Assembly (NCBI GenBank): GCA_008632985.1
Contig: QPGO01000087.1
Location: 248,001 to 312,000 of the forward strand
Direction: 5' to 3'
Source of the DNA: Psammoneis japonica
Lineage: Eukaryota
DNA length: 64,000 bases
Position numbers and translations under genes: made by a program. The notes below the pieces were generated by a model that worked only from the letters and a program-made list of their open reading frames with translations, searched no databases and was not told the origin of the DNA. Below, piece by piece: positions 5,379-61,629 of this stretch; position 1 is the stretch's first letter; every line of letters begins with the position of its first letter.

Positions 5379-5706
5379 ATCGAGTTTTATCGGCTGGTCC
5401 AACGAGTTCAAAGTGAGCTTCAGAAAACGAAGCCAAATTGCTGTGTACCGGCAAACCTCAGCGTTCAGCGTGTTGCAACTCTTCAACAACTCAACAGCAT
5501 GTCATCGCGCCATGGCCTCAACACGCTGCGCGCGCTACCGGTACCGGCATGGTGCGTCATGCGTCTCATTCGACTCAACATCTTTTCTGCCTTTTCTTGG
5601 CCTCTTGTTGCCTTCTTGTTCGCCATGAGCCATCATACTCAACACCGCAGAGCAAACGCAGATCGCAACAGCAAGCTAAAAAAGCACGCCAATCAATGAC
5701 AGCTTA

Positions 5707-6720
5707 GTGTCGCATGCCACCAAGGAAGACATGGCTCGCCTGGAAGCACCCGATGCTGCCGCGAGAGCTCAAGCCACCGAATCAGGCAAAAGCCATGGGA
5801 AAGTCAAAGGCGGTGTTCGCTGGGTGACAACTCAAGGGTTGCAGAGTGAAGCAGGGAAGAAATTGAATGGCATGCTTGGAAAGGTGCTGACTCAAGAGGC
5901 GAACGATGAAGGACGGCATCAGCTTCAAGTGGACGGCATCAAACAGATGAAGCTTGGCTTTTGTGCACCCGCCAATTCGGAAAATGTCCCACAAGCAGAT
6001 TTGACAAGAGTGTGCCATCTTCCAAGTGATGGAGAACAGGAAATGCAGCAGGTCTTGATCTTCCCAAAAAGCCATCATTTGTTTGGAGGCTGTCCTCCTC
6101 TCATGGTTGAGAAAACCAAACCATGTCGAAGCTTGCATGATTGGGCTGAGTGCAACAATGTGTGGGCAACGTGGCTCAAGATTGAGCCACAGAGTGGCTT
6201 TGCACCTGCCGAATGGCAATCCTTTGCAGGGCCGGTTTGTGTTTGTTGGCCAGGTGGAGCCACTGATTTGTCTGGGGATGGGATGACAAGGATGCCACCA
6301 ATGAGTTCTTGAGTGCACTGTTTTGGATGGGCGACAGGCAGATGGACCAGCATTTGATCCACACACATGGTTGAACCCCGGTTTCTTCCTCAAGTTTCTT
6401 CGGGACCTCAAACATGCGAGGGAGCATTCTAACATGGGCTCAGCTTTGGAGGGTCTGACCATTGTTGATTCATTGGACAGGACAGTTGTGCTGCAGAACT
6501 GGGCTGGCACAGGTTGTGTGGCAGCAGTCTCTTTCCAGAGATGAAAGGCGGCATTGTTGAGGCACTTTGTGATGACAAACTGTTGCACAGCAAGATCTGC
6601 ATTGTCACACTCTTCAACTCCATCATTTGGCAAGATGGTGTTCGTTGGGTGACCATTCAAGGGCTTCAGAGTGAGGTGGGGGGGGACACAGCACCTTTTG
6701 TGAGTTGCTGAATTTCTTTC
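5707..6720 (+). pseudogene. Hypermutated (TpA/CpG-depleted) copy of a hypothetical-protein gene
   Basis: VxxQGLQSEAGKKLNGxLGKV...GRHQLQV and WATWLKIEPQSGFAPAEWQS motifs with no Tyr, broken frames and an internal repeat (5812-5849 vs 6637-6674). Confidence 0.6.
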
Positions 6721-7109
6721 GAACCTTCGCTGGCATCATGAGAGATTTGGGTGTGTTTCGATGAAATGCAAAGAGCGACTTCTGTCAGCTGGCTAACTCT
6801 TCTCTCTCTAGTAGAGAGAGAGGTTACCTCTGCTGCTAGCTAGAGCCACTTCTAGAGTAGAGCTCTAGAGAGCAGCGCTGTACAGTAGAGAGACATCGGC
6901 ACTTCGTTCGTACAGTAAAAGCAGTGGGGCGGCATACGACGCGACGGGCAGACCGACCCGCGATCTGTTTGGTCGTGTTTCCAGTTTTGTGTTTTGGGTT
7001 TGTTCGAAAAGGTGCCGCGAAAACAACACAATCCGTGAGTGACCACAACATTTCACAATACAAGTATTGGACTGCGGTCAAGACAAGATAACCTCAGATC
7101 AGCAAGAAT

Positions 7110-10461: not shown

Positions 10462-11579
10462 CTACTCTTCGTCTGGAAGCAGGCACTTATCTGCGACATA
10501 CGCTCCAATCGGAGCACCAAGAAGGGGTCCAACCACGTACACCCACCATCCCTGAAAGGCAATCTTGCCCCACCCCGCCATGCCGGCAACGATACGGGGG
10601 GCAAAGTCACGAGCAGGATTGAATCCGGCCTGCGTCAGTGGCGCAATCACGCAAATGAGCGCCCCCACCGTGATGCCAACAAGGGGCGGAATCAAACTGG
10701 AGTCCTTGACGGTATCGTTTCGTGGGTTGGTGAGCGAAAAGACAACAAAGGATAGAACCGCGGTACCAAAGGCTTCTGCCAGCAACGCAATCGGCCACGT
10801 GATTGGAGCTCTGTGCACACGAAATGATGTGTAATGCAAAAATTGAAAAATAAGCCGAGGAAATGTATATCAGCAACGAAAACACGTGTGGTTTCCCCGT
10901 ACTCACGCAAAGTACTCCCCAAAGCACTTTGCACTCGCCACACTCGCGGTAGCACCTCTCACAATGCTATTTGCCTTTTCAAATTCTGCAATCTTGCTAC
11001 CAAACAAAACCAGATTCATTCCCGCCGCAAGCACGCCACCGGCCAATTGTGCGAGACAATAGGGAATCACCTTGGTCCAGCCAAACGCCTTGTTTGGTCG
11101 CAGCAGAGCCAGGCAAACGAAATGGCTGGATTCAAGTGAGCACCCGAAACGGACGCTGTGGTGGAGATTGCAACAGTCACGGCAAAGACCCACACGGCGG
11201 CAATTTGAAACAAACCCACCAAAGCATTATCGTACACGACAGACATTACGGATCCAGTGCCGAGCGACACTAAAAGAAAAGTCCCCAGGAGTTCCGCCAG
11301 CATTTCGCGTCCCAGATTGGAATTGTTGGTATTCTCGCTTTCATCCTTTGACCCTGCTCGCAGTCCAAGTGTATATTTTATCAAATTGCTGCCTTGATTG
11401 CGAGTTGTCGTCAGAGGCTCGAATTTGCCTCTATTGGAAGCGTCCTGTTGGATCGATCCGCGATGAGCGGAAGCTTGACGGCAATGCCTCGACGTGACCG
11501 AAAAGGCTGCCGCAGCCGACGATCCATTTGTCACTGCCGCAAGCAGCAGAATACACGATGCCAACATGGACCTCATCAT
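10462..11579 (-). CDS. MIP-family aquaglyceroporin with bipartite plastid-type presequence; apparent 1-nt frameshift near 11112
   Basis: AELLGTF, SGAHLNPA, AEAFGT, GFNPARDFAPR, WVYVVGPLLGA. Intron 10811-10906. Signal peptide followed by AAAF-S. Confidence 0.92.
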
Positions 11580-11814
11580 TTAGCATTTCTCTTTTACAAA
11601 ACCGTCACAACCCCACTGTCATGAATGGCGAGATCGACTGGAAACTAAAATGATGAGTAAAAAAAAAGAGTCAAAAAGATCGCGATCTTTTTGCGATCTT
11701 CACGAGAAACTACTGCTTCACCCGATGATGCGCAGTTGCGCGCCATTGGGATTTGGTGTCGTGGTGGCACTTTTTGTTGTCAATTTGCATGTTGTGCTTT
11801 CCGAAGACAATGTA

Positions 11815-13700
11815 CAGATGGTTGACACACATGTGATGTTTGGATGGAGATGGCTCCACCAGTGCAGTGGATGCATTCTCCCAAACCCAAAGCTGGTGGA
11901 TGGTGGCAGACTGAAACTGTCACCAGCATTTCCTTGTTGTTGGCTCTTGTTCAGAAGAATGTGAGGTGAGCCACCACCAAGGGGCTTTGTCAATCTTCTC
12001 TTGCGTTGGTCTGGGGCACTCTCAACTCATGCATGTGGTCAATGAAGGTTGGGAGGTGTTGTCCATGTCAAGAACAGTGTGGGAGTCTGCTTTTCTTGTG
12101 TGCTGACCCTTGTGTCAAGAGAGCAGTCATCATGTGCGGCAGTCATGTTTGGATCTGGTGAGGCCGGGCCGCCCCACTTCTGTGCCCTCTCCAAAGCCAA
12201 AGTGCAAAGATGACACACATGCAATGTGAGGAGCAGAGACACCTCTGTCTGCCAGCAGAAGCACAGTGCAGGGGGGCACTCCCAAGCTCCCACAAAGCCA
12301 GGGCCACAAGCACACCACGTCCACAATGTGCGCTGGAGACACACAGCTTGTGGGGCAACTTCTTTGCTTGGGAGTCAGGAAATGGGCTGAGCCAGTGAGA
12401 AGTTGTCATGCTGAAGTGAGCCAGGCAAAATTTTGCACAACTGGTCAGCTTGCAGGTGTGCAAACAGCACAGCATCTCATGGATGATGCGACACCTGCTG
12501 CTCTGCAGCCTGTGGCATCACAGCAACTGTGAAAACCTGCAATCTCACAGGAGGGCGGGCACACCCAGCAACAACCTGTGTGCTTCACATGTGATCATCC
12601 AGCACACTGTGCATGTGTTGGGGCAGCAAGAAGGGGTGCTGCAGTTTAAAGCCTCTTGCAGCTTAGAAAAAAAGCTCCTTTTGGTGCAAGGCAACAGTGA
12701 GTGAGCAAACCTCTCCTGGGAGTGCTTGTGAAAATTTTTGGCAACAAACGCCACAGGGCACTGCAAAACATGATGGCACACAAACTGTCCAACTTGTGCT
12801 GATTGATGCACATGACAGCCACTGGCATGTTGTGTTCTGATGACACACCAAAGAAATGCATGTGGCCAGCACTTGAAACTTGAAAGAATTTGGAGTGTGT
12901 GGCTGCAAAATCCACTGTGACCTGAACACATGACATGACTTGAGAGAGCGCCCTTTGAGAGGTGATGCACAACAATCATCACATGGCTGCTCAGACAACC
13001 AGGACAGGCACAGCCATTGGACAGGTGCTCCACCTTGCCAGGTGGCTGTTGGCTGTGCAGGTGGTGGTGTCAAGCACAGCTTGTCCAGGCTGGCCTTGAT
13101 CAGCCTCTTGCAGCTTGGAGAAAAAGCTTTTGGTGCAAGGCAAGGCAACAGTGAGTGATCACAAGAATTCTCCTGGGACATCAGAGGCCCCACAACACAG
13201 TGGTCATTGCTGTTTTTGATGTTCATTTTGCCTTTGAATTTTGTTTGTCTCACTCATTTAAATGTGATGATTAAACTTGAACGGTGTTTGCACAATGCAA
13301 GGTGTTTGCATGTTTCATGAGGAATTTTGTCATCTGTTTGCATTGACAACATGTCCCAAAGCAACTTGCATTTCCAAATGTTTTGTGATTGAATGTTTGA
13401 GTTGCAACAATTGATCCTCTTTGCTTTTGATGCTTTAGATTTCAACTTGGTTTTTACTTTTTACACCCCATTTGTTTGTGTGTCACCATGTGTGCTGGCA
13501 TCGTGTCTGCACCCAAGTCATCTCCACGTGTGCACTCCCTCTTTGCATCTCACTTTTTCCTGGAATTCTGTGCATGTTTCTCCGCCATGTGTTTAGTGCT
13601 TTTTCTACATGAGCCATTTTCTGTGCATTTCACAACAGTGCACCCTCTTCCCAAAATCAATTTTACCAGGCAGAGTGTGTGCTGTTGTGATTCATGCAAT
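11815..13700. mobile_element. Heavily hypermutated repeat-derived sequence, family not identifiable
   Basis: Near-absence of TpA and CpG. Contains a ~380-nt segment (12418-12790) repeated at 18102-18440 and partly at 13100-13180. Confidence 0.6.
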
Positions 13701-14949
13701 TTTTGCATGAGGAGCCACCAACGGATTTCTTCTGGCCATGGCAGTCAATGACTTCACCCCTGTCAGTGGACGAGGTTGACCCTGATCCCTCATTCATCTT
13801 TGCTGATGATGTCAATTTTGATGACACAGAATGTTTCACTGATGGTTTTGGAACGGAGCTTTTTGGGCCCAAGCTCAAGAGCACAACTGCCATGCATGCA
13901 TCCAAAAAGCAGTTTGTGGAGAGAACAAGCTGGTCACCCTCTCCAGCACTCCTTGCACTTCCCTTCCTTTGCCACAAGCCCAAGCTTTGTCACATTCCCT
14001 GCATTGCTGAAGTCATCCGCACAAACAACATTGTCAGGAAAACTTTTGGATGTCCCAATGTTTGGTCCCACATCATGACTCATGGTTGGTCAACAAAGAA
14101 ATCCTGCTGGAACAAAGGTGAGCATGTTCTTTGGCATCAAAATTTGGAGGATGCTCTTTGTTTCTACACCCCACCAGGAGAGACAGAAAAAGAAGAGGAG
14201 CACCATCGTGACCTTCACCGCAACACAAAGGTGATGGTGGAGTTTGTGTGCCAGATCATTGCCAGTGAGGACCTCAATGATCCTGTCTCAGGCAAGCCTT
14301 GTTTCCATTTTTCTACAGTGCAAAAGTCTCCAAGATCTGATTGACAACTGAGCACATGACCTTCACGGTGCACACTTTGTCATCAAAATGGTCATGCATT
14401 GTGTCCACTGCAAACCCCTGGACAGGAGCCATTGGTTCATGCAGATCTTTTGTGAAGTCGCCACCCAAAAGGAGTGGCACATTTTTGTCTGCAGCTTTCT
14501 TGTCATGTGCCAGTTGAGTGAAGTTGGTTCTGAGGAGGAAAAAGTCAAGGGCTTTCTTGGAGACAAACTCTGTTGCACCAAGGACATGGCAACAATGGAG
14601 GGCAATGCCGTTGTCGCCCGAGAGGCACACAACAAAGCAAAAATCAATGCCATGCGACAGCATGCATTTGGGAAGCGTTGTCCAAAGGAGCAACCCAGCA
14701 CATGATCCAGGTGCTCCAAACAGCTCACAATGCTGCATTGCCAAATGCAAGATCAGAGGGCTGGCCACTTGGATGATGACAAAAAAGGGGAGCACAATTC
14801 AAAACCAAACACAAAATTGGAAGGATTTGCAAAGATGGCACCTGCTTGCACGAAGCTGGCAAATGCTTCCTTGTGCCTGCAAAGCTGTTGTTCATTGTTT
14901 TTTTTTTAAGGATGTCTTCTCTGTTCCATTTCTTTCTCTCCAAAAGAGC

Positions 14950-17900
14950 CTCACAAGAAGACCAAGTCTGTTTCACGTGGCAGTTGTGGATTCCTTGTTT
15001 GGAATTTTTGCAACTTCAAACTGTCTGGTTGCCAGGTCAAAATCATCATCAAACATTTTGGGACCACCAGGGAATCTTTTTCCCTTCTGCATGACTTGCA
15101 TGGTCCAATGAGATCCACACACAGGGTCTTTCCCATGGCACTGACTTTGCACACTTGGGAGACAAATGTTGGCATTTGCTTCTTTTGTTTCTTCTTGAAC
15201 TTCTGGAGTGCAAAACATTTTTCAACACATGTTTTCACATGTCTGCACACATGGCAGACCACCACAAGTGTTGTGAGATTGTCTCTTCTGTTCCATTTGT
15301 GCCAGGATCTACCAGAAGGTGCTGCATGTGATGCCAATCTCTGTTGCTGACTTTTGTGACAACTTTGGTGCAACAATTTTGTTCTCCTGACATGTGAGCA
15401 TTTGATCTTGCTTGCCTCCACAAGAAGTCTTCACATGACATGTTACATCCAACAATTTGGAGAGAATGTCTTTGCCACATTTCTGTTTTGTGTGTGTCAA
15501 TGGAAAGACATTGTTGCAGGATTCAGGTGCAACCTTCTCAGCCAATTGTTCAGTGCCAAGGTTTTCTTTCACAGTGAGTCAGCTGATTGCATCTGCAACA
15601 ACACTCACCTTGCCCCTGCAGCAAACAAATTGTGTTGGGGCTGCATTCTTCAAGACTCTGTCTGCAGCAAAATTTTTATGATCCACAACTGTTTTTGTCT
15701 GTTGGCCAAACAACACATTTTGGAACTCCTTGGGGGTTTCCACCACAGACAGCAGTTCTTTTGCCATTGTGCTGGTGTGGCACATCTGTGCTTCATTTGG
15801 CTTTTGGCTGTGGAAGGCCCCAGGTTGGTTGTTCTGTGATGTGGCCACACCAATTGAGAATTGCTTGCACCAGCATGCATCTCAAAGGGTTTGCCAAACT
15901 TTGGACACAATGATGATGTGTCTTTTGACACAGCTTTCTTCACTTTTTTGAAGGCTTTTTGTTCCATGCTCATCCGTTGCCACATGACCTTCTTAGATGA
16001 GGTGATTTTGACTGGAGGAGCAAGTGTGTGAGAATGTTGAGGCCACATGTCTTGATGGCAGTCAATCACGCTAAAACACCCCCACTTTCTCAGGAATTGG
16101 TTGTGTGCCTTTTCATGAAATGTAGAAACCCAGACAGCCTGCTTTGGACTTTGCAAAAAAGGACATTTTTGCACTGACCTTCAAACCGGCTTGTTCAAGC
16201 CACGAGCCACATGAACACCATTTCAAGTTTTTGGAGGTGTCCTTTGAAGTCACCTTTTGTTGGAGTGTGTCATCATCACATGTTTTGACAAACTCTAAAC
16301 CCACCATGAGCTCTCACTTGTGTGCTCTTGGAAAATGTTTGGAGCTTGACAAATTCCCGTTGGTGGGAGTCTGCAGCACTCACATTTCCCCCACGGCATC
16401 ATGATTGTGCACAAACAACACATGCACTTGGTGTCAACTCAATGTGGTGACATCTCATGTTCAAATCAAGTGACATTGCACACATGAAGCCCTTGAGCTT
16501 CTGAAGCATGTCTTGAATGTTGGACAGAGGGTGTGGAGCATGTGCTGCCAAGTCTCCAACTCAGCTGACAAAAGTTGGACAAGAACCAAACTCTGCCATT
16601 TTTCTCAGTTTAAACACAAAGTTTGCAGAGCAGTTTGTTTTTCTTGAGACTCCTGTCTTGCAGAGTCTTTTGACTTCCTTTGAAGCAGTCCCCTTAAGAC
16701 CTGTGGAACAGGAAATGGTTTTGCATGATGTTGGGTTGCACTGAATTTTGGTGCAAGATCTGCCAGTTTCCCTGTCCATGCATCTGAGGCACCATTGAAA
16801 AGATTTTCAAATCTTTCTGGGAGGAAGTTCAATTGCTTCTGTTCCTCTGGAGTGAGGTGTGTTGCTGCTGCAGTTGCATCATTGAGGTCAGCAGCATGAT
16901 GGTCAGAGTCAAGGATCCTGTTGACCCTGTCATTTTAAGAGGACTTTTCATGGCCTCAATGTGATCGGCAATCAGCTTGAAGACCTTGGCACAAAAAATG
17001 CATTGACATTTTTCATTGGTGTGGTTGCATCTTTTTAATTTCCTCATTTGCAAAGTCCAGTGTGACTCCAAGACTGCTCATTGAGTTGTGTCCCATGATC
17101 ATGTCATGCTTGCATGAAGAAGAACACCGTCTTCTCAATCAGTTTGTGCTCATCAAATTCAGGCAATGAGAGCTGAATTTTGCATTTGCTCCCTCCCTTG
17201 GTTTCCCAACTTTTGGTGGCAGATGCGTTGGCTCTTAATCTCCATGCAAATTGTGCAAAATTGTGGTTGACAATGTTCCACATCAAGAAGAACACACAGA
17301 GGCTCATCTTTCTCTTTCCCCAAAGGAAGCCTTCACACAAACAATGATGCTGGACCAGTGCAAATTGCTTTGGCCCTTTTTCCAGGCTTCCCAACATCCA
17401 GCAAGGCATGAGACTCCTTGACAGGTGCCAGTCATTTTTCAGATTTGCTGTGTGTCATTCTGTTGAATTGGCAGTTTTCCTCACTGAGAGCATCAGAGTC
17501 ACAATCTTTGCCTTTGTGCTTTTTGTTGTTGTTCAAGGAACTTGTGTTGAGAGATTTGTTGACTGCCTGTGTGGTCATGGCACTCAACTCTTCCTTGTGA
17601 AAAGCATTTTCAGTGTTGTGACGTGACCCTGTGTGATTGCCATTTGAATGATGCCATTTCAGGTTTGGCTCAGAATTGTCGCGGCATTCCTTTGCCAGCC
17701 TTTTAATGACCCAGCATTCATCCACATGTTGTGAGTGGCCTTTTCACAATGAATGCACCACTTGCAGATTGGCGACCATTTTTGGCACCGTGTTGGGGCC
17801 CACCTTTGGTTTGGGACCAGGTTTGCTGTCAGCATCATTCTTGACATGAGTTTGGTCTTAAACATGCCCTCAATGACCTCCAAACATTCCAAGAACTCAA

Positions 17901-19250
17901 CCAACTTGTTGAGGGCATGGACTGAGATTTCAAAACTGGCTGATGTCACCATCAACAAGGTGCAAGGTTGCAGACGATGTCCTTGAGCTCATGTTCATTC
18001 AGATGCTGCTTTTGCTTGAAGGGAGGACAGAACTTGAAGTCTTCATAAATTTCCTGAGTTCAAGCTGAAATTTCTCAAATCTTCATCATTTCTGGTTTCT
18101 TGAGCCAGGCAAAATTTTGCACAACTGGCTCAGCTTGCAGGTGCACAAATGGCACAACATTTCATGGATGACACAACCTTTGGCATGACAACAAATGTGA
18201 AAACCTGCAATCTCGCAGGGTGGGCACCCAGCAACAACCTGTGTGCTCTTCACATGTGGCAATCCAGCACACTGTGCATGTGTTGAGGAAGCAAGAAGGG
18301 GTGCTGTGGTTGAAAGCCTTTTGCAGCTTGGAGAAAAAGCTTTTGGTGCAAGGCAAGGCAACAGCAAGTGACCAGCCACAAGAACTCTCCTGGGAGTGCT
18401 TGTGAAAATGTTTGGTGCAAAAACATGATGGTGCACAAACTGCTCTGTGAAACAGTTTTCTTGAAGTCTGAAGACATGTGCAAGAACACACAAAACTCTG
18501 ACACATCTCATGCACTGCACTCAAAGAACAAGCGTGCAAACAGAAAGAATCACGAAAAGTGAAAATTGTGAGATCAAATTTTGTTCAGCCATTTGCAGTT
18601 TCTCTGAAGAAGTTCTCAATGGCCCCAGGTCTTTGCACTGTGTCTGCAGATCAAAGGCCATTTGGAGCAAATGATCATGACAACAGATTGCCTGGATGCA
18701 ATCAACATTGACATCTCACATGTCAACATTGTTGGGTGATTGCACCTGCAATTTTTGACAGCATTTCTGATTTTGAAGTGCACTGGTTGTTTTTGAAGGC
18801 TCCATTGGCTTCTTTGTCATCTGCATTCATGGCCTTGGTCTCAAAAACGTGGAGAGCATCTCCCTGCAACAATGCACTTGTGAGACAGAAATCATCAGCT
18901 TGCTTCTGGATGTTCTGTCCAACCAAGACTTGACGGTGTGTCTTGAGGAATTTGATGTGCTTGGGAACGCCTTGCTTGTTGTGGTGCTTGACATTGATTG
19001 CGTGAGTGCAGCTCTTCTTGTTTTCAGGGTGAAAGCACTGTTCCATCTTGAGGCACTGACTCGGTTTGAGCATCTTTGGCTCAGAAATTGACTCCAAAAA
19101 AAGGAAAAAAATTCTCCTGCTCGATGAAAGACATGGCAGCACAGCAACATGAGGTGAAAGCTTCAATTTTTGGTTTTTACAATCTGCGTTGTGTGTGTGC
19201 ACAATGCACCATGCTTGAAGAAATTGTGCAAACAAAAGCAGAAAGAATCA
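14950..19250 (-). mobile_element. Decayed Ty3/Gypsy LTR retrotransposon (gag-protease-RT-RNaseH-integrase), integrase truncated
   Basis: gag (QVLVGQNI...ALLQGDAL.VFE; ELKDIV), RT (AKPFPVPQ..KEVKRLCKTGV; FVKT-CDDD for YxDD), RNaseH (KPFE.H..AS..QL; AF.S.K.N.AQ....KELLSVVET.KEF), integrase (PGTN.TEETISQHLWW; LCVDLIGP; FEVAKIPNK). Domain order RT-RH-INT is Gypsy-type. Confidence 0.92.
18102..18440 (+). repeat. Second copy of the 12418-12790 segment, interrupting the Gypsy gag
   Basis: Colinear match beginning gagccaggcaaaattttgcacaactgg and ending ctctcctgggagtgcttgtgaaaat...gcacaaactg. Confidence 0.9.
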
Positions 19251-20467
19251 CAAAAAGTAAAAAGCTCTCAATGGCCTGAGGCATTTGCGCCATGTTCGCA
19301 GATCAAAAGCCATTCAGAGCATCTGACCATGACAACACAGATTGACCCAGTTGACGCTGACAACTCATGTGCCAACATTGTCGATCAACCATGTTTGCAA
19401 TTTTCAACATCCGATCAAATCTGTGTGATTAATCTGTCCTTCATGTGCGCCCACAATTGCAACATGATCAACATGTGCAACAACATGCAACTGTGATGAA
19501 TGTGAGTGTTTCTTCCTGCGCAACAACACACAATGCATTCATTGCCAAGAAAGGAGCAGCCAGCAATGTTGCCACCTCAGCTGGCTTGTCACTCCGGATG
19601 AAAATGCATGAGCAGCTGGTGTTTCTTGTGAGTGGATGAGATGCTGCAACAAGCACAAGATTGTGCTTTGAGGAAGCCCAGCAATGTCTTGGCGTTGCAG
19701 AGCAGCGCAGCTCTTTTTGGAGAGCTCTGCTCAACATGGTGCCAACAGGAGGGTGGTGCTCTGCCACAAGTGCAGTGTGCAACATGAGCAAAATTTTCCT
19801 TGTGCTCAAAAATGCACGTCAGAGGAGCATGTGCTGGAGCAAGCACAAGGTGTGTGTTGAGGAATGGTCGGTGGGTTGGAGCATGTCTGGTGGTGTGGCG
19901 GACAGCTCCACAAGGTGCACAATGACAGCGAGCCAGACCAACTCACAAGCAGAAAATGTGCTGTCAAGATCTGTGCCCTGGCTCTTGGCTCTCCCAAAAC
20001 ACACATCATTTTTGGGCCCAACAGTTGCATGGTGTGGTGGTGGGCAGCAAATGAGCATGGGGCCCTTCATTTTGGGAGTGCACCCCAGTCTCTCTCAATC
20101 ATGTTGGGAGCCAGCAGTGATGGCAACGAAAGGTTTGGCACTGCGTTCTTGCTCCGTCGGTTTACGACAACCCTTTGGTTGGTAGAGTTTGTGCTTGCAG
20201 TTGCAAATCAGACACTTTGCACATTGTGTGCACACAGTGTGACATCGGCAGAAGATGACCCATGGATTGTCATCATGAGCGAGCTGCTCTCTACTGGCAT
20301 TGCGAAGAACGCACCGGCACGCACATTACATTCGGTGCCGGTGCGGTCCCGCATGCATTGGACAGCACTGTAGAGTTCGTCCGATTGGGCTTAAATCTCA
20401 TTAAACATGGGCTTAAATCCTCGCATGTCTTGTGTCTCCTCAAAGCATTCGCGCGGTACGATGATCG

Positions 20468-22009
20468 ATGATCGCCTCACATAATCCACGAAATCAACAG
20501 CAGCAAGCAATGAGAACGATGCGAACCTCTCTCGCTGTTTTGTTGGTCTTGCTCCTCCTTACAGGCGTGTGTTGGGGAGAAGCTACAAAAAGGGATCTAC
20601 ACTGTCGATACACTGTCGACATCGAGGAAGAAGTTGACGAAGGAGGTCCCCATGACAACGACGGTGGACCGTCGAATGACACTGTTGTGTGCATTGAAAG
20701 TTCCATGGCATCTCATGTGGACAAGATGGCCGAAGTGTTTGTGCTTGAGGTGGATGGATGCCACCAAATTGGGAGAGAGTGGTCGACAGATGGGATCTTC
20801 TTCAGTCAAAACAACAAGAAGATCTCACCAACGGTCCAGAATCACATCATGGCAAAACCAAAAATGTTTCTTGACGGCGAGCTCACTTTCGAAAAGAAAA
20901 TTAGACTAGAAGAAAATGCTGCTGGACACGGGCGATGCTTGGTGCACAATGTAGATGCGACCAAAAAGATTAGAAAAAAACGGAAGAAGAGAAGGACGAG
21001 AAGGCGCAAGTTCTCTCTGAACAACAAGGGGCATTGCAGAAATTGTCTTGCAGATGATGCGGATGCCAGACGGAGAACACTGAAATCTGGATCTTTCATC
21101 CGTAACATGATTCACAGTGTCACGTTTGAAACCTGGATGAACATTCGCATCCAAGAGGTGATGCAAGAAGATTGCTCACTGGTGACAATTTTCAGCACAA
21201 CCTTCTCAAGAGTGGAGAATGGACAAGTGACCCATGCAAGTGGTCCGTGCACTCCTGTAGAGCAAGAGGCAGATCTAGAAATCACTGCTTGCGGGACCAT
21301 GTCACCATCACATGCGCCGACAATCGGCCAGCCAGAAACAGAAGAACCATCAACAACACAACCAACATTCCCACCGACAAAAGGACCGACGGAGTCGCCA
21401 ACAACATTGCCCGCAACTGCACCGACGACATCACCTGCCATTGTCTCGGTCACGTCACCAAAAGCTGCTCGTTGTTCCTCTGAGATTTCAGTGAATGGGG
21501 GTTTTGAAGACGGAAACCTGAATGGTTGGACACAGTTTCCATCTCCGGGCAGCACCCAGACTGTTGGCAGTGGTGTCCCTTTTAACCCCACCGAGGGTAA
21601 TTTTGCAGCAAAAGTGGCAAACCCTGCGCGGGCCAGCGGGAGTGTCATCAAGAATGCCAATCTTGGCATGGGTCTCGTGAAAGCAAACGATCCCATTGCC
21701 GTTTCGTTTGACGCCCGCGCGGACGTGCTGGGCCCTGGCGCCTTGGTCTTTGCCGAGTTTTTCTCCGAGCTTTCGGGTGGCGGGACATCGAGAGAAGAAA
21801 TTCTCGGAGGAGGACCAATTCTTTCCGTGTCTAATCCTGGCAAATGGAAATCATTCTCTTTTAGCACGACTGCAGGAACAGACGTTTCAGGTGGTGTCAC
21901 ACTCCAATTTGTCGTTGTAACCGGAGGAAACCAGAGAAGTAAAGCCACGGCATGCTTTGACAATGTCAGTGTCCGAGTCGGTCACTCTTGTAGCAAATGG
22001 CAAGGTTGA
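20468..22009 (+). CDS. Secreted protein with Pro/Thr-rich linker and C-terminal carbohydrate-binding (CBM4/9-like) domain; open but TpA-hypermutated
   Basis: Signal peptide, CRNC..DD.D.RR motif, PTxxPT linker, VNGGFEDG...GW...FDNVSV domain. Only 1 Tyr in 513 aa. Confidence 0.75.
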   Translation: MIASHNPRNQQQQAMRTMRTSLAVLLVLLLLTGVCWGEATKRDLHCRYTVDIEEEVDEGGPHDNDGGPSNDTVVCIESSMASHVDKMAEVFVLEVDGCHQIGREWSTDGIFFSQNNKKISPTVQNHIMAKPKMFLDGELTFEKKIRLEENAAGHGRCLVHNVDATKKIRKKRKKRRTRRRKFSLNNKGHCRNCLADDADARRRTLKSGSFIRNMIHSVTFETWMNIRIQEVMQEDCSLVTIFSTTFSRVENGQVTHASGPCTPVEQEADLEITACGTMSPSHAPTIGQPETEEPSTTQPTFPPTKGPTESPTTLPATAPTTSPAIVSVTSPKAARCSSEISVNGGFEDGNLNGWTQFPSPGSTQTVGSGVPFNPTEGNFAAKVANPARASGSVIKNANLGMGLVKANDPIAVSFDARADVLGPGALVFAEFFSELSGGGTSREEILGGGPILSVSNPGKWKSFSFSTTAGTDVSGGVTLQFVVVTGGNQRSKATACFDNVSVRVGHSCSKWQG

Positions 22010-24225
22010 GTCGAACTCGAGCTTTTGCGATGACACGAAAACTGTGCCGGCCAGAAATGATTCCGCCACACAGCCATGAAAAAGAAGAACCAGCGTTGAG
22101 TGAGTTCGATCCCCTTGCGGTAAAAAGCAAGCGCACTTGTGCAATGCTCCGCAGTCACTTCCTTGCCCCTCTCAATGCTGCCAGTGCCCAATTCGTGCGC
22201 TCTACCGCATTTCCTTCGTGAGTCCACCTGCATCCTCTTGCGTCGTCCGCTTTATCTTGCAAACTTGTTTCTTGCCGGCAATGTGGTGCGTCACTTTCGC
22301 AGCTTGAAGAACGAAGCCTCCAAGTCCCTCGAGTTGGATTGCATCGAACCTCGACTATGCAGGCTCATTGCAGGCATGGGTGGGGCTGCACAGAGTGACT
22401 GGTAGAATGGATCTCTCAGCCGCTCCTGCCAGACACGTTTTAGTTGGATCCACCCTTCGAATGACTTGATCATGGAATCATGGCATCGCACACATCCTCG
22501 CTGACAGGAGCAACTTCATTTCCTGATCCACTGTCATCGCCTTCTTTCCTTCTCTTGGCGACTCTTTGCATCAGACCGAATTTCTGTTGATCGCAACAGC
22601 TCTCTGGGGCACCACTTTTGACAGCCTTGAACTGGCCATTGGCAGGTGCCTGCCGCTCCGTCTTCTTTGGTTCCACCTCCTCCCCCCTCTGCAGATGCTT
22701 TGTCCATTTGACTCGATCGCATTGCCAAGCACCGCGTCCCTCGCGCGCAAGGACGAAATGATCACACCGTTTTGGTTTTTGTGCATGAGGAGGACGTTGG
22801 ACAAGCATTCCACAAATGTGAAAAAGAGCTGCAACTCCAAATCGTAGTGGGGTCGACGCTGGATTTCCAATGACAGTTCGTGTCACATGAGTTGTTGACA
22901 CATGACATTTATGTCGGCCTGGCATTCGAGTGTAGATTCAGCTGTCTCCTGAGGATTCCAAAACAGCTCACAATTGCACGCCATTCGTTTTCTTTTCCCT
23001 CTTCCAGCACTGACTGAGGCATGGAGCGCTTGCTCGGGAAAATCCGTCACACCGCAGGTTGCGGTTGACCATTTTTTGGGGACAAACTTTGACATCCGCT
23101 CCATGGCGCCTCAACATGGATGTGGTCATTGACCAACGCCGCCAGTGCAAGTGAACAAGTGAGTTCAGTTGAGCGCTGGCATGCGCCGTTGATCTTGAGC
23201 GGCTTTTTTGGCATTCATTTAGTCGTTTGCTGTCAAAGCAAGTAAAATGATTGCAAGCGACAACAAAGCACAAGATGCCAACAAGGACCTCATCATCATT
23301 CTTGATGCATTGTGTAGCTTTCGCCTAACATGCGAAGCTCTTGCCAAAGACCAAAGATCTTGCAAAGATTGCAAAATATCGTTCAATTGATCAACATACA
23401 TTTACTTAGAGTCAATATAAAACATTTAACTGTTCAAGTCCGACCGTTAAAAGTATTTAGCACAGTCGACTTTTCCTTCCACGACCAAATTGTCAACTCG
23501 CAGCGCGGTTACAGTAGCTATGATATGAGGCTACGACTAGCACAATGTGCAAAATAGGCCATAACGAACTGAATATTTTGTATTTTAATATATAGTTAAT
23601 GTCTGGATGATCGGTATGTAAAATGACTGCACATGACTCCTGCTGTAGAATTTGTACCAGTCTACGTAATTAGGGCTCTACGAACTGAAGTCATACAGAA
23701 ATGTCTGGTGTTAAGTAAATTCAAATGTCGGAGCCGCCAAAATGGACCGAAACGCCGGCCACGTCTTTTAATAAAACATTCGAACTTGTTTATTGATTAT
23801 GAAGCAGTCGGAGTTGAAAAAGTAATATCAAAATTTGAGTTACAATTTGAATAGGAAACATTCAAAATCTTCTAATTGTGTTGCGAGTATCGATGTTTGA
23901 GTACAAATTGTATGGTTACATCTGTAAAAATGCCTAAATACTTGCTAAAAACCGTTATCGTTAAATATCGATGTACAAAAAAAGCTATACGGGTGTTCGG
24001 GACGTTTTTTACAGTTCACATTGTGCTAGGCGTAACTCCATATGACTGCTGGCGCTGTGAGCTGTGACAAAAACGAAGAGGAAGGAGGAAGCAAGAGTGT
24101 GTGGGTCCGTGTGTGTTTGTTCTCGAGCCGCTTATCAATCGGTCGTTTCGCCACTAACTATTCGTTACCCGGTTTGATTGATCAAAAAATTGACAAAACG
24201 CACAAAACAAGAATATAACACAACT

Positions 24226-41502: not shown

Positions 41503-41942
41503 GTGTGTTTGACCGAATGCCACCACAACATCGGATGAATGCGTTTTCGTTGTTGCAAGGGACTTTAGACATGATGCTTCCGCTTCCACCAACTCTATTT
41601 GCGCCATGCGTGCGCGCGTGGCTCGTTTAGTGTATAGCATGGGCAACTAAAGTCGATACGCAAGACTACAGGAGCGAAAAAAACGCGCCGCAAACGACCA
41701 ACACAACCATGATGTTGATGGTTTGAAACGTTTTGAAAAACGAATCGATACAGCACCCGTGCCATTGCCACACGATGACAAAACTTGCTTTTACCACGGG
41801 AATGCCCCTTCTTCGAGCTTCACACGGTACGTACTTTCTACGAGACTTTTGTACCAAAGACTGATGATAGATGCGCACCGAATCTCCTTCCTCGGTCGAG
41901 TCGCCATAATTTTCAGAATCGCTTCTGGTTCACAGGTCAACC

Positions 41943-52073: not shown

Positions 52074-54420
52074 TCACGGGTCAACGTATTCGCCAATTGT
52101 TCGGTAGAAGGCGCTCTTGAACGGGTCACTGAGGATCTCCTTGGCAGCATTCAGAAGCTGCGAATACTGAAGAGCCCAACAGCTCAAACGGTTGTGGTCC
52201 GTGTGGTATCGAAGACTATTAACCCGCCAAGCAGTCGTGACATCTAGAGGCGTGGGATCATCCCCTAAACCCAAGAAGCCTTTGGGTGTCTGGAGTTTGA
52301 TGGTATGGATGAGGCCTGCCAGAAGAGAATTTTTGAAGTTTGCAAGACCATTCAGGTTTGAATGGTCAAAAAGACCGAAGGTCTTCAAAGGGGAATGGTC
52401 GCAAAGGTTCAGCAGGAGGATGTAATCCCACTGGGCCTCTCGGTATCGTTGAACTGCAACAAGATGAGTCACTCGTGCGTATACAACTCGTGCCGTGAGG
52501 CTTGGCACACCCTCCCATGGGTGAGCCTCCTGCTGCATGATAGGACAGATTTCGTTAGACAAGTCAAGTGCCTCCTGATAATCCGGCATGCGCCAAATGG
52601 CGGAACTCTCGTCCTTCCGAAAAAACTTGTCGGCCTTCTCCTGGACATTTGCATCGTGAAGAAGGCTTTCCGTGGCTTCTAGAAGACGGCCTGCCGTGCT
52701 GGACCAATCCGACCTCAAGAAATGAGGCCAGCGAAGCATTTTACACACCTTCAACTCCATTTGAGCATGAGAGGCGTCACTCTGGAGTGCCTTGGATGCA
52801 ACGTTGAAACGGTTCTGGAAAATCTTGATTCGCGCAAACTCTTCGAGTCGCCAATTGTCCCAATCTGGCTCGCGGTCGTCGAAATACAAGCTAGAGGCCT
52901 CCATGGACAAAAGAGACTTGGCAGTTTCCAACTTGTTGTTGAAGACCAAAGCCCGGACAAGGGACTTGGCAAGACAGGAGTTGCCGAGGTGTGTCGCAAA
53001 ACTGTCCTCATTGGGTTGGACGCTGATGCAAATTCTTCCGCGACACCCTTGAAACGATCGAAGTCAGCCATGTCCCCGACAACTGGCCCATCCCAATGCT
53101 CCACTCGACGAGCAAAATTCTCTAGCACTCCCACAACGCATGTCCAGTTGTTCCCGTCTGCATGCAAGCAGACCAGCTTGCGAAGTACAACAGTCGAGAA
53201 ATGTAGAGAGGTGAGCGATTCCATCGTTGGCGCGCCGTGCGAAAACACAACATGATGAAGGTCGTTCAATTCACGCTGTGTTTTGAGGTCCCCTTTTCCC
53301 TCGCCAAGCTGGTCGTCAAGCCAAGCTTTATGTTGAAGGCAGCTTTCTTTGTCATCCTGGGCTAGAGCACACAAGGCGAGGCACAGCTAATTCGGTGCTT
53401 CAGTGAGCTTTTCAACGACTGCACCTGCAAAAGGGCCAGACACTCGTTGGCCGCAAGATCGTGCAGGGAAAGCACGCGCAAAGCTTCGGCCCGGCACAGT
53501 CGGGCCTCGTGATTGTCCTCGTGTTCAAGACACCGGCTTGCCACACTGACGAGAGTCTTGGCAACGCCGCACATGCGATCATCCGTGGCCTCACAAAGCT
53601 CCTTGAAATGGGCTTGGGTGTTCTCTAGCTGCTCAAGCTCCTCAAGGAGAGCGGCAAACCCATTGGTGACTGAAGTGTTGGTCGGGGAGATGCCAGCACC
53701 GGTCGAGACTTCCAACGTGTCGTCGGCAACCGAAGGCGTGACGTCCAACTTGGCAGGAGCAGATGTGTCTTCTGACTTCTTGGTGGTGGCAGGAACGTCA
53801 TCCATTGAGGTTGAGGCGACAGCGGCAGTGCAATCTTCGGTGGGGGCTTCCATCTCCTCGGTGGGCTCCTCAACATCAGAGACCACATTGCCGCGAGGAT
53901 TCGTGTGTTGTGGGCATCGATGGGGGCTTCGTCAGTGGCGCTGTTGGTCTTGGCTTCGGCGGCAGCATCTTCCGAGTCAGTGGGGGCATTCGTGAGGTCG
54001 AGCCGCCAGCATTCTCCGAGTCGGCAGGGGCGTTGGTCGAGTCGGCATCGGGAGAGGCACCTCCTTGTGGCAAATCATTGTGCGCTTGATTGTTGGTCTC
54101 GCCGTTGATTCGACGACATGGATGCCAACCTTTTTCATTTTGTTTGCACGTGAGTTGGCAAAAACGAAAAGTCTGAAAAAGGTGTTTGAAGCGTTGCTTC
54201 AACTTCTTGTCCACCAGCCACGCTTCCAGGTTCTGGCAGAGTTCGTGGAATGCAAATGCTTCGTCATGTGATTCCGGCCTTGGAAGAAAGCCAAGCTTTC
54301 TCTCCAAAGAATCTCCATTTCATCTTGGGTGGGACCTCGACCTTTTTGTTTGGAGGACGGGGTGACCAGTGGCTGCTGTAAAGCTCGCACAGATTTAGCG
54401 GTGCCGTGTGACCCATGCTG
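52074..54420 (-). pseudogene. TPR-like + C-terminal J-domain gene, frameshifted and progressively TpA-hypermutated toward its 5' end
   Basis: FLGL.......V..AWR..SLRYHTD.N.......SQLLNAAKEILSDP (J-domain, HPD->HTD). Helical TPR-like segments upstream and several frame changes. Confidence 0.65.
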
Positions 54421-55099
54421 TCCTTCAACTCACAGAAAACCAATGCTCGACGTTGCCATTTCTTGAGGACAGACAATGGCAATGATGATGGCGGAGAGCC
54501 AGGAGGAGGGCCGCGGTGTGCACGAGGACCATGATGATGAGCGGGGGATGGCGAACCCGGCTGCTGCTCATGCGGACGCCGCCGCTGGCTCTGTCGAGTG
54601 CTACGACGACGAGTGACGGACCGAGTTGTTCTCTTTTCCATGGTTCGTTGTTGTGTCCGGCAAGTCGGGACACCTTGCCAAGAGCGCTGTTTCGATCTTG
54701 TCGCTCTTTCTGTCGATCTCTTTTGAGGAGACAAGTTGAAGGTGGCACCAACAAGAGCAACGAAACAATGACTGTGAAAGTGGAAGAACGACAGCCATGG
54801 CCACAGCGAAATCTTTCGCTGATCCTCTATGAATTTTCAAATTTGGCGGTCCGGCGCGCTGCAGTTGGCAGCACATGCAGAAGATTCATCGTTGACAACA
54901 AAAATGTCGGTAAAATGTCGTTGAAAAGGCCCGCGACATTTTTTGACTCTCACACTCACGAGCCGCAAACTTCAACAAACTCAATGTGTTGGGCTACGTT
55001 CAGTGGGATCGTGCTGGCCGGGGACCAGCAGGAAGAGCGTGCGTGAGAACAATCATCGCTTGCCCAGTCGAGTTGCCAGTCCAAGCCTGGTGGGCCCCA

Positions 55100-58000
55100 G
55101 CAATGACAATCAAGTCCAGAACGAGCGGGACAAACAACAGCAACAGCTGCTTCTTTGCAGGGGCATCATTGGCTGTTGCTCGCAATGAGCAGTTCAAGAA
55201 GGAGTTTGCCAGATGGCAGGGAATGAACCCTGCAAAACAAGCAGTGCAGGAATCTCACAAGGTCAGCGAATCCCCTGCAGATGATCTTCTGAGATGACAG
55301 AAGGAGACTCATTTGAATGCTGCAAATCACATTGAATGACCAAGAATGGATGAAGCAAAAGAGGTGTCAGATTGCACAGGTGTGAGCCATTGTCTGTTCA
55401 ACAAATGCAAGGAGCAAGACACAGAACAGCCACAAAGGCCTGCTGGAAGCACATTTGTCATCAGCTGTGCGGAAGAGAAGGAAGCAGATCTTGGAAAAGG
55501 TGACACATGAATCAAAAGTGCGAGGTGTGGATGCATTCCAGCTCCAGCTGGGTGATGCCTTGTGCTGCTGAGCTGTGACAACATCAACAGTTTTCTTTAG
55601 ATCACACCTGTGCTGCACACACACAATTCTGCATGTGACTTTCTATGAAATCATTTCATGCTCCCACTTTGCAAAGCCAAACACTTTCTGTTTTCTCCTT
55701 TTGTGAAAATGAAAATTGGTGGCTGGGTGTGTTCTTCAATGTCTGCAGAACTTGTTGTGGCAAACTCTGAATGACGTTTGCAAAATTGCCTCTTTTTCTG
55801 TTGGCAATCACTCACATGTTCATTGCTTGATGATTTCACTGGTGGTGTGGAGCTTGCATGTGGAATTTCATGGGCCCAATGTCACACACAGTCCCACCTG
55901 GGGCTGGAACTCATCTGTGGCAGGTCTGGGATTTTCTGCATTGCAATTTCCTGGGACCTGGGGACTGTGGAGGCAGCCAAAGACGTGGCAGTGGTCTGAA
56001 GCATGAGATGCAGATGTGGCATTCATGAAGAAAGTCAATGAGGAGCAAAATGATGTGGAGCTAGCCCACAAACTTGTCAAGCTGCTTGCCCAACATTGTG
56101 ACTCCCAAGACACTCGAGTCAAGGAGGACACATGCCCAGATCAGTGCACTTCTGTCCTGCCAGCACTCACCCACCAGGTGAGCTGCATGCCATGGACACT
56201 CCAAGTGACTGTCTTAAGAGCTGCCATGACAAGTCCTGTGCTGCTGTGAGGAGACTCATGTGATCAACCAATGTTCTTTGGCAGGGCAAGCTCTAGAATG
56301 CAACCCTTGCAAATCAACTTGATGGAGTGAGACTTCAGCTGGTCCTCTGGAACATTCTTTGGCAGGTTGGCCTGCACTTTGTTTGTCATCAGCCTTGCCG
56401 CCACTGACCCATCTTGCATGCTGTGAAGGTCAAGAAAGCTGCTGAATGCATGATGGAAATCACAACAAGCACAGTGATCATGGTTGGGGACTTGCACCAT
56501 GGCATGTTGCCAGATGGACTTGAGTTCCTGCCTGGTTACATCAATGACTTCAAAACCAGGGATCCAAGACCACTTGCTGCATTGTTGGAACTTTGCCACC
56601 CTGGCCAATCACACAATGCAAAAGAGTCAATTGGAGTCACCTCTGCATGAGACAAGACAGATGATGGAAATCACAAGCACAGTTGTCATGGTTGGGGACT
56701 TGCACCATGGCATGTTGCCAGATGGACTTGAGTTCCTGTCAGGTGTCACATCAATGATTTCAAAACCAGGGATCCAAAACCACTTGCTGCATTGTTGGAA
56801 CTTCACCACCCTGGCCAACTGCACAATGCAAAAGAGTCAATTGGAATCACCTCTCCATGCAACAAGACAGCTTGCCAGCCAGCAGGTCATTGCTGGTCAC
56901 AAGCTCCTGGAACAACACTGCACATGTTTGTTTTGACAAGAGACTGGTTGAGTTTGTCTCTGCACTCTTCTGCCCTGCAAAGTGGCTGGCAGTTCAACTC
57001 ATCCTTTTTAGAACTGCACATGTCTGCATGCCACATGTGACAGCTCTCCTTCCAACTCCTCAGACTGGGGAAAGGTGTCCAAGTTCTTCTTTGATTTTTC
57101 CAAAGCACCTGAGGACTGACATTGTCAAGAGGTGCTGCAGCAGGTCAGAAGAAGGCTCCACAGCACCACCCATTTGAAATTCAGGAATTGGACAATCCAC
57201 AGGCCATTGTGCAAACATCAGAAGAAGGGCAATCACACAGTCACCTGTGACATGCTCAGAGATGTGACCTCCACCAAAGTGGGGCCTTTTGTGACAGTTT
57301 TCTGGTGCAAATCAAAAATCTCAATGGCAGCATCATGCCCTGAGCAGTGCTTTTTGCTTCCCCAAATTTCAGAGTTTGGCCCATTGTTGTTGCAGAGGGT
57401 CAAATTGAAATTGCACATGGGACAGCAGAAAGAACATTGTCTGGTTGAACTGCAGAGTGTGACTTTGGAAGGGTTGCAATTGCCATCATCATCTCATTGA
57501 TGAATGAATGCAACACAACACATGCTGACTCTTCACTGCACTGCAAAATGCAGAGTTGGTGCTGCCGCAGATCACAGTGCTGTTCCTGCATTGGCAAGGT
57601 TTTGCAACTTTCTTTTCTTGAAAGCTCACACTCAAGTCTGGAAAAGTGCACAGCACATGCAAAAGATCAGCTTCAAAAACTCATCACAGACATCTGCACT
57701 CCTGTTGCCATTGGGGGCAGGAAAAGATTGATGAGTTGCCGGGGAGGCAAAAAGAATGTGGAGCTTGTTGTGCCACCTTCATCTGATTTGTTTGTTGATG
57801 AGGAAAGACCACAGCAGAATGCAGCTGGACAGCTGCTGCCACTGACAAAATCAAAGCTGGATGACATTTGTTCTTGCAGCAGGGCACCACAAACAAGCAA
57901 AGCCAGGGCAGGACTGGCACGTCAATCTCAACTGCGATGTGTTTCCACTGGCATTGCTGCCATGCCCACAAATGCAGCATCCATCATTGAAGTTTATTCT

Positions 58001-60950: not shown

Positions 60951-61629
60951 GAGATTCAAATCATCTCCTCTCTTCTCACAAATCTGATCAAAACCGATCG
61001 TTGAGATCTCTCTTCAGTTTGCACTCATAATTTCTCCGTGGAGAACTTTGACAACGACTTCTGCCATTCTGTTGCAACCTTGAGCTCTTGCTCTCACTGA
61101 CACAAGCTGCTTTGTTGCATCTTTAGTGGTTGCGAGTCCCAACATCGCACAGCGTTCGTTCCACCACCGGGAAAGCGCTGTCGACTGGGTCATCAAAGCT
61201 TCCATCCACCACCAACGTCGATTTGTTCGTTTCAACCAAACGGCCGCATTGTTTCACGTTCTGAACGACACCTCCAGTCGATGTCAGACACCACCTACGT
61301 CTCCACTAGCCGCCATCATTCGCTGACAAGCTGGCAGTTCACAACGCGTCAAGGACTCAACCTGCAATCTCCAACGCGTTCCGAATTTGAAACCACAACG
61401 TCCGTGCGTTTCAAACCAAACCCGGATCGAGTTCCTTCGACTCTCCGAGTCCCCCATCCCTCAAGAACAGCTCCTCAAGTGACGTCGCTGGTCACTTCTG
61501 TTGCACCATTGATTGTCGTAGTTGTTTGGCACGGTTCTGCAAGTGTTTTGACTCAAGAACGTTCCATTGCTCCATTGTCAAGTTGACTGCGTACATTTGG
61601 CACTGCAGCCACACAAAGTCATCTCTGCC

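Follow-up and report, generated by a model that had tools for sequence, protein, structure and literature searches.

The present analysis concerns a window of 64,000 nucleotides from Psammoneis japonica (contig QPGO01000087.1, positions 248,001 to 312,000; all coordinates below are those of the window) and, in particular, an open reading frame (ORF) of 513 codons at 20468..22009 on the plus strand, which encodes a putatively secreted protein with a C-terminal CBM_4_9-like domain and lies beside a decayed cluster of long terminal repeat (LTR) retroelements. It appears likely that discrete blocks of this pennate-diatom-like genome have undergone a hypermutation specific for the dinucleotide TpA, and that these include a single-copy block at 20621..23310 to which most of the ORF belongs. 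This view is carried by the observed shift in composition, with its mass balance and its strand symmetry, by a rule governing the neighbouring bases, by the borders of the blocks and by the single-copy status of the block at 20621..23310. Indeed, the gene bears the same signature of TpA loss as the retroelements, namely a low observed/expected ratio (o/e) of TpA, a gain of CpA and TpG, and the absence of the tetranucleotide RTAY (R, purine; Y, pyrimidine) among the 25 TpA sites left in the block.

The block is 2.7 kb long and comprises, besides most of the ORF, 1.3 kb located 3' of the stop codon (22010..23310; non-coding and without a family match), where 11 TpA are found and the TpA o/e is as low as 0.14. 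Over the whole block the TpA o/e is 0.15 and that of CpA+TpG 1.40, values lying outside all those of 307 background windows of equal size (0.46-0.72 and 1.04-1.30, respectively), while CpG, at 0.80, is near normal; in the background DNA of the window the TpA o/e is 0.5-0.7 and that of CpG about 1.0. Between the retroelement remnants and the block lies a stretch of 370 bp (20251..20620) with 12 TpA, an o/e of 0.53 and normal CpG, which takes in the upstream region together with some 50 initial codons of the ORF, including those of the signal peptide. On its right side the block stops abruptly at about 23310, 4 nt away from where a contig of 2132 nt (21175-23306), assembled from a second sequencing run (X2, see below), comes to its end; this contig spans the 3' half of the ORF and the downstream part of the block. 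No terminal repeats or duplications were found at the bounds of the block. Read depth was taken from a DNA run (X1) whose single-copy baseline is about 57 (summed depth) and which possibly derives from the same organism as the assembly, so as not to be fully independent of it, its library type not being on record; in this run the depth over the block is 55-76, and no parent copy of the block at 90% likeness or more is seen in its coverage.

The observations on the ORF made in a preliminary description from the sequence alone were confirmed by recounting. The frame is open over 513 residues with a single Tyr, and the approximately 14 TA sites reported between 20640 and 22000 are exactly 14 TpA (8 TAG and 6 TAA), TAC, TAT and ATA being absent; the remaining 5 of the 19 TpA in the whole ORF fall within its first 150 nt, four of them being TAC, and the sole Tyr codon is the TAC at 20609. 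The ORF, in which no intron is present, was compared with 13 host ORFs of the window: its TpA o/e is 0.20 (0.34-0.63 in the host ORFs), its CpA+TpG 1.37 (1.07-1.29) and its Tyr content 0.2% (0.4-5.3%), while Cys and His (13 residues each) together amount to 5.1% of the protein, inside the span of 1.1-7.5% in the host ORFs. The diversification of secreted proteins by new Cys and His, suggested in the preliminary description, would be conjectural. About 50 TpA would be expected from the host-ORF rate instead of the 19 observed (Poisson P=3.9e-7), and the loss extends to all codon phases, with observed/expected counts of 1/22.3, 6/34.3 and 12/40.2 against pooled host ratios of 0.55, 0.45 and 0.56. 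The gene had also been called CpG-rich; its CpG is near normal, with an o/e of 0.80 as opposed to 0.15 in the adjoining retroelement cores.

The reference for the signature is provided by two cores depleted in both TpA and CpG. Core 1 (11750..20250; TpA o/e about 0.05, CpG about 0.15, CpA/TpG about 1.9) is an old multicopy LTR retroelement cluster: its minus strand carries fragments of RT_RNaseH (one at 15582-15881 with E 4.2e-7, another with E 0.0062), LTR-like repeats of 79% identity are present at 12417-12741 and 18101-18415, and its summed depth in X1 is 150-1100 compared with about 57 for single-copy DNA. The Ty3/Gypsy features at core 1 consist of these RT_RNaseH fragments and LTR-like repeats alone, the element being too decayed for firm classing. 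Core 2 (55000..61000) has no family match. For the two cores pooled, the strand-symmetrised relative abundance (ρ) is 0.05 for TpA, 0.15 for CpG and 1.87 for CpA/TpG, and the loss of TpA and CpG accounts quantitatively for the gain: the CpA/TpG ρ predicted by mass balance is about 1.84 in the cores (1.87 observed) and about 1.46 in the block (1.40 observed). The other AT dinucleotides are nearly unchanged (AA 1.22-1.26 vs 1.17; AT 0.83-0.91 vs 0.92). A secondary ApA target was also considered and set aside, the composition being not supportive (AA ρ 1.22 vs 1.17). Deamination of 5-methylcytosine at CpG gives the same products, TpG and CpA, and accounts for the CpG loss of both cores (0.15), but it cannot remove TpA and is rejected as the cause of the TpA loss; since CpG in the block is near normal while TpA has fallen to 0.15, the two losses are spatially separable.

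The gain is shared equally by the two strands. CpA and TpG rise by about the same amount (1.41-1.47 and 1.35-1.48 per kb-window), the counts between 21175 and 23306 being 198 CA and 175 TG; the process has therefore acted on both strands, which counts against an edit of sense-strand RNA that became fixed. At four dinucleotides of core 1 (13988-13989, 15033-15034, 19567-19568 and 19633-19634) both letters disagree between the window and an X1 contig, TG standing in one and CA in the other, as would be expected if a single ancestral TpA (or CpG) had been converted independently, on opposite strands, in two copies or haplotypes. At 15257 a loose end of an X1 contig, belonging to another copy of the element and aligned by eye, has, in a span of 30 nt, three CpG and two TpA at sites that read CpA or TpG in the window.

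The loss of TpA depends on the flanking bases. In the cores the surviving sites, relative to those expected, number 1/257 for RTAY, 20/515 for mixed contexts and 29/257 for YTAR, so that RTAY is the sensitive and YTAR the resistant tetranucleotide, as the preliminary description had proposed; the background o/e of the same classes is 0.72, 0.61 and 0.42, and a likelihood-ratio test of context dependence against uniform loss gives chi2=70.2 (df 3, p=4e-15). The enzyme-like preference for certain neighbours that had been suggested finds support, in a simpler form: the RTAY/YTAR rule reduces to a per-strand rule, T-A-N, in which T-A-Y is sensitive and T-A-R resistant (T>C>G>=A). Per-strand survival relative to background increases in the cores from TAT (0.016) through TAC (0.048) and TAG (0.092) to TAA (0.217), and in the block from TAT (0.05) through TAC (0.20) to TAA and TAG, which are about equal (0.35 and 0.36). 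A Poisson model in which the strands contribute independently, each via the base 3' of its own adenine, yields for the cores per-strand survivals of 0.76 (A), 0.33 (G), 0.16 (C) and 0.05 (T), with an adequate fit (goodness of fit p=0.37), and for the block 0.77, 0.75, 0.40 and 0.11 (p=5e-4), the order being kept. None of the 25 TpA of the block is RTAY, a class that makes up 30% in the background (P=1.1e-4). Tyr is lost first because its codons are TAY, the most sensitive context.

As regards the direction of change, TG or CA sites of the C-terminal domain were reverted to TA and the encoded residue compared with that of 62 homologues. The reversion restores a family-majority residue (present in at least 20 of the 62) at 5 of 43 nonsynonymous candidate sites (A384V, M401I, A411T, A469T and C496Y), whereas five control substitution rules restore 1-2 of 32-60 sites; the result is suggestive of a past loss of TpA in the domain, without being decisive.

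The process that we envisage would be an A:T to G:C transition specific for TpA, by which TpA is turned into TpG on one strand or, equivalently, into CpA when the other strand is hit. It would act on DNA and on both strands, its strength varying with the base on the 3' side of the adenine in the order T > C > G >= A, which would make RTAY the most sensitive and YTAR the most resistant tetranucleotide; it would have saturated the old, CpG-decayed retroelement cores and have acted also on the 2.7-kb single-copy block, the blocks being slightly more probably chosen by chromatin or by RNA-guided silencing than reached by passive leakage. A frame subjected to such a process would stay open whether or not its protein functions: TAA to TGA keeps a stop, TAG to TGG or CAG and TAA to CAA remove one, and none is created from a sense codon, so that the open frame of the gene is no evidence of function. 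As to the chemistry, the target adenine of tRNA adenosine deaminases, A34, follows U33, and in ADAT2/3, TadA and ADAR alike the target adenine follows U/T; ADAR favours a 3' G, whereas a 3' pyrimidine is preferred here, and we know of no established action of ADAT2/3, TadA or ADAR on double-stranded chromosomal DNA. By analogy with the proposal made for the chlorarachniophyte Bigelowiella natans (Mettrop et al., bioRxiv 10.64898/2026.01.13.699255), the adenine may here be deaminated by an enzyme resembling ADAT2/TadA.

How the affected DNA comes to be chosen is a separate question, for which the preliminary description had offered two answers, namely that the activity leaks from transposable elements into their neighbours or that it targets multicopy gene families. 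The second is contradicted by the depth of the block, which is that of single-copy DNA. The first holds in so far as the signature does reach the gene and the 1.3 kb downstream of it, but it is not general, two host genes that adjoin other depleted domains being untouched. A passive leak that declines with distance from the retroelement cluster, the gene being damaged merely by proximity, is regarded as unlikely, even though it is the best of the alternatives. Three zones depleted in TpA only are present in the window, the block itself and the two flanks of core 2 (52750..54999 and 61001..64000), and all three abut doubly depleted cores; on the left side of core 2, moreover, TpA density steps down as the core is approached, from 2.4 through 1.0 to 0.4 per 100 bp. 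Against this, the DNA nearest to core 1 (20251-20620) is the least affected, the right border of the block is abrupt, and a strongly transcribed aquaporin gene 170-750 bp to the left of core 1 retains RTAY in 5 of its 16 TpA (TpA o/e 0.35). Likewise, the genes on either side of an isolated TpA desert (5705..6794) are normal up to its sharp border, with a TpA o/e of 0.51 and 0.65 and RTAY at 16 of 39 and 9 of 44 sites.

A block-wise targeting, set by borders of chromatin or of transcripts, is therefore favoured over a passive, distance-dependent leak, and by a modest balance of probability we incline to it. The borders at 5705 and 6794, at 11750 and at about 23310 are sharp. The sole recognisable domain of the block has bacterial relatives, a foreign origin of the block being conceivable but not proven. 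Copy number alone is not the trigger, because a MITE-like (miniature inverted-repeat transposable element) insertion lying 200 bp beyond the block (23516-24050; some 535 bp long and bounded by inverted terminal repeats of 34 nt with 79% complementarity) has an X1 depth of about 1000 and yet is TpA-rich and shows no TpA loss; the insertion is polymorphic, since one X1 contig joins 23518 directly to 24041.

The second run, X2, raises the matter of the age of the event. The run is labelled 'DNA?' and was treated as RNA-like; it resembles a transcriptome, one of its contigs skipping 10811-10906 with GT..AG ends (minus strand) and its depth being zero across the retroelement core. Its contig at 21175-23306 differs from the window at 62 positions (2.9%; 0-1.7% for the other X2 contigs). 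Among the 91 differences listed for the run, 65 have C in the window and T in the run, or G in the window and A in the run, and of the 62 in this contig at least 45 must, by subtraction, belong to that type. The window has 20 TpA in this interval, where about 68 would be expected at the host-ORF ratio; the deficit of about 48 and the 45-62 directional differences fit a recent hypermutation, specific to one haplotype or strain, by which the copy in the window would have lost some 50 TpA in 2.1 kb while the copy transcribed in X2 would keep its TpA and a normal Tyr content. The same interval holds 114 CpG, and the excess of C>T and G>A differences fits a decay of CpG in the copy of X2 equally well; a recent event is accordingly put forward as a tentative possibility only. 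If it were true, convergent transcripts that overlap and end at 23306 may mark one of the borders.

The protein encoded by the ORF begins with a hydrophobic, signal-like N-terminus, followed by an orphan region of about 290 residues, a Thr/Pro-rich linker and the C-terminal domain. The putative signal peptide (20510..20578), read from the translation, would start at the second or third Met, has a Leu-rich core and lies inside the part of the gene with normal TpA. The C-terminal domain (21482..21982, residues 339-505), of the beta-sandwich type, is the sole part of the ORF with relatives. Its match to Pfam CBM_4_9 (PF02018) over residues 339-475 is below the gathering threshold (19.7 vs 25.9 bits, E 0.0011), while precomputed annotation assigns PF02018 to many homologues of 40-56% identity, so that the domain is best named CBM_4_9-like; no solved structure was matched by the protein sequence. 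The relatives, which cover only residues 335-505 or so at 40-56% identity, are bacterial or metagenomic, and those that are named are all bacterial (Planctomycetota, Jejuia, Wenzhouxiangella, Woeseiaceae, Myxococcales), many of them being short PEP-CTERM proteins. For the N-terminal 330 residues an exhaustive HMMER search of 1.8 billion representatives gave no relative, and an Atlas look-up of the N-terminal region gave a score of 0.79, below the useful level. The designation of the gene as 'host-type' is therefore doubtful, relatives being available for the C-terminal domain alone, the named ones bacterial and at most 56% identical, and the N-terminal 330 residues being an orphan.

The scarcity of Tyr, to which the preliminary description had attached weight, is only partly specific to the locus: the number of Tyr in homologous domains is 0-5 (median 2), with none at all in 4 of 62, so that the near-absence of Tyr is in part a trait of the family. 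The peptide ATACFDNVSV, cited as an instance of a Cys (Cys496) where an aromatic residue is expected, does fall in a column that is aromatic in most homologues (Y in 27 and F in 23 of 62), although Cys also occurs there (3 of 62). Of the five Tyr/Phe columns of the domain, four are occupied in this protein by Phe, which is a normal state of the family, and one by Cys496.

A number of observations weigh against TpA hypermutation of the gene, or weaken the evidence for it. The CBM_4_9-like family is Tyr-poor by itself, so that the missing Tyr of the domain is weak evidence when taken alone. An ordinary host ORF with a signal peptide (41910-43163, plus strand) has 3 Tyr in 418 residues and a TpA o/e of 0.34; since it shows no excess of CpA/TpG (1.12; CpG 1.21), low Tyr and low TpA alone are not diagnostic of hypermutation. 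The purely synonymous signal within the coding sequence is weak overall, the ratio xTA:xTG at Leu and Val codons being 6:27 in the ORF and 93:297 in the host ORFs (p=0.53), and that of T to C in the third position before an A (T3|A1:C3|A1) 12:50 and 206:419, respectively (p=0.03). For the block the per-strand model gives a poor fit (goodness of fit p=0.009), and the sites surviving in the coding sequence are asymmetric between the strands (7 RTAR vs 0 YTAY), both of which may be due to coding constraint. Comparison of repeat pairs inside the window gave no positive support, only 2 of 35 isolated differences being of the TA/TG or TA/CA type (13 others are transversions, 10 are A/G after A and 4 are C/T before T); their near-absence follows if both copies are saturated, as hypermutation of the cores predicts. 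Finally, the direction of change is inferred from composition, because neither an ancestral nor an orthologous DNA sequence could be found for the gene: word-index protein searches, an exhaustive HMMER search and a scan of metagenome loci for an allele or orthologue returned nothing beyond relatives of the C-terminal domain with no more than 56% identity, the metagenome scan giving 14 loci with distant relatives (31-66% identity across 14-100 residues) and one exact match of 14 residues.

These observations could be taken to mean that the low TpA and Tyr are intrinsic, reflecting the composition of the family, codon usage or a bacterial donor, with no hypermutation in the gene at all; indeed, the Tyr-poor homologous domains, the four Phe columns common in relatives, the synonymous Leu/Val ratio and the host ORF at 41910-43163 all speak for it. 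Nevertheless, we deem it very improbable: the 1.3 kb 3' of the stop codon are depleted to the same degree, the CpA+TpG of the block is above that of every background window, RTAY is missing with the same context signature as in the retroelements, and related domains at 13 of the 14 metagenome loci have a TpA o/e of 0.82-0.91 and do contain RTAY sites, these being distant relatives and not orthologues.

Even less credit is given to an artefact of the assembly, by which modified TpA bases in silent chromatin would have been miscalled as G or C. The run X2 does show T or A at many sites where the window has C or G (the 65 of 91, and the 45 or more of 62, given above); however, X1 contigs of single-copy depth agree almost completely with the TpA-free retroelement core (a single difference in 776 nt, none in 1028 nt and 2 in 879 nt), and they agree also with both ends of the block, where 17 of 1653 nt and 7 of 772 nt differ, X1 being, as stated, not fully independent. 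The idea that the block is a retro-copy of RNA hyper-edited (A-to-I) by an ADAR-like enzyme, for which the intronless ORF and the adjoining retroelement with its reverse transcriptase remnants might be adduced, is the least credible and is discarded, as editing of sense RNA would give TpG alone on the coding strand whereas CpA rises equally, TAG, the preferred triplet of ADAR, is among the relatively resistant contexts, and the block is single-copy with no parent seen at 90% likeness or more. A 5' U preference of the kind seen here is ADAR-like, as far as the preprint on B. natans describes it (bioRxiv 10.64898/2026.01.13.699255).

Other parts of the window contribute further depleted or contrasting sequence. 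The isolated desert at 5705..6794, placed between a cytidylyltransferase-like gene and another host ORF, has 1 TpA in 1.09 kb, with a CpG ρ of 0.40, a CpA/TpG of 1.63 and borders that are sharp within tens of bases; its frame at 5782-6735 (minus strand) encodes 318 residues with no Tyr, 19 Cys and 18 His and has no family match, and the desert may be a solo LTR or a fragment of an element. The right flank of core 2 (61001..64000), TpA-poor and CpG-normal, holds an open frame of 816 residues (61552-63999, plus strand) which continues past the end of the window and contains 6 Tyr, 33 Cys and 40 His. It has no Pfam match, and a scan of viral contigs gave no relative; Atlas feature hits of 0.90-0.91 were obtained to clusters partly with zf-CCHC, one of them from Bacillariophyta. 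As a lead only, it might be the Gag-like frame of another retroelement whose CpG has not decayed. In the left flank of core 2 (52750..54999) lie the N-terminal 100 or so codons of an ORF on the minus strand (52074-53063) whose weak DnaJ match is at the C-terminal end (52103-52274), where TpA is normal; the process may here have encroached on part of another gene. A Pfam search of 257 stop-to-stop frames from the depleted regions detected just the RT_RNaseH fragments and the domains of neighbouring host genes. As to the host, the best of the named relatives of a Lon-protease exon (33934-35391) are from pennate diatoms, namely Cylindrotheca (73%), Pseudo-nitzschia and Fragilariopsis (both 71%), for which reason the genome is described here as pennate-diatom-like. 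A host ORF at 39978-41396 (plus strand), made of about 6 tandem repeats of a unit of some 55 residues, contains 25 Tyr in 473 residues, so that Tyr-rich coding DNA is intact 18 kb from the depleted domain and offers an internal contrast.

Among known systems, fungal repeat-induced point mutation (RIP) turns CpA into TpA, so that TpA rises, and needs duplicated sequence; it is ruled out here, TpA being depleted and not enriched and the block being single-copy. What is common to both is a defence-like riddling of repeats with dinucleotide-specific transitions, which can affect adjacent DNA (see, in part, bioRxiv 10.64898/2026.01.13.699255). The closest parallel is provided by B. natans. In full-text searches of the literature, targeted hypermutation of TpA to TpG/CpA was found only in this 2026 preprint, with no report from a diatom. 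According to its main text, the hypermutation of this organism is targeted at TpA in integrated viral or foreign DNA: in mutation-accumulation lines, 231 of 302 de novo substitutions fell in two integrated viral regions, where all the GC-biased ones were on TpA and gave TpG or CpA (A to G or T to C), at rates of about 6e-7, some 1000 times those in the remainder of the genome; reverse transcriptase and transposase/DDE endonuclease domains are over-represented among TpA-poor coding sequences, and an ADAT2-like candidate is named, enzymes of this kind being cited there as DNA-active in amphioxus and trypanosomes (bioRxiv 10.64898/2026.01.13.699255). As in B. natans, TpA alone is lost to TpG and CpA (here as judged from composition), on both strands and in discrete regions poor in TpA and rich in CpA+TpG. 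Unlike in what the preprint describes for that rhizarian, the host is here a stramenopile-type diatom, from a different supergroup; the saturated targets are remnants of LTR retroelements which are also CpG-depleted; the depletion is deeper (o/e 0.03-0.15, compared with a Rho of 0.45 for the giant-virus insert of B. natans); and a single-copy, transcribed gene block is affected, with a quantified order of 3' neighbours (T>C>G>A); the main text of the preprint uses none of the terms 'context', 'flanking' or 'trinucleotide' (bioRxiv 10.64898/2026.01.13.699255).

If the same signature is indeed present in a diatom-like genome, the process would be old and widespread among algae, or would have arisen repeatedly. 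What is new here is the T-A-N preference and the strike on a single-copy transcribed block. The former, with its order T>C>G>A, is an enzymatic fingerprint which any candidate deaminase must reproduce; the latter shows a cost to host-side genes and provides a locus at which rules of targeting may be tested. For annotation, long open frames, missing Tyr and extra Cys and His in such blocks are to be taken as by-products of mutation and not as evidence of function. Should the event prove to be recent, the diatom would possess an active, block-targeted editing of adenine in DNA, with a T-A-Y preference and with targets set by the borders of transcripts or of chromatin, and such a system would be able to strike single-copy genes as well as repeats.

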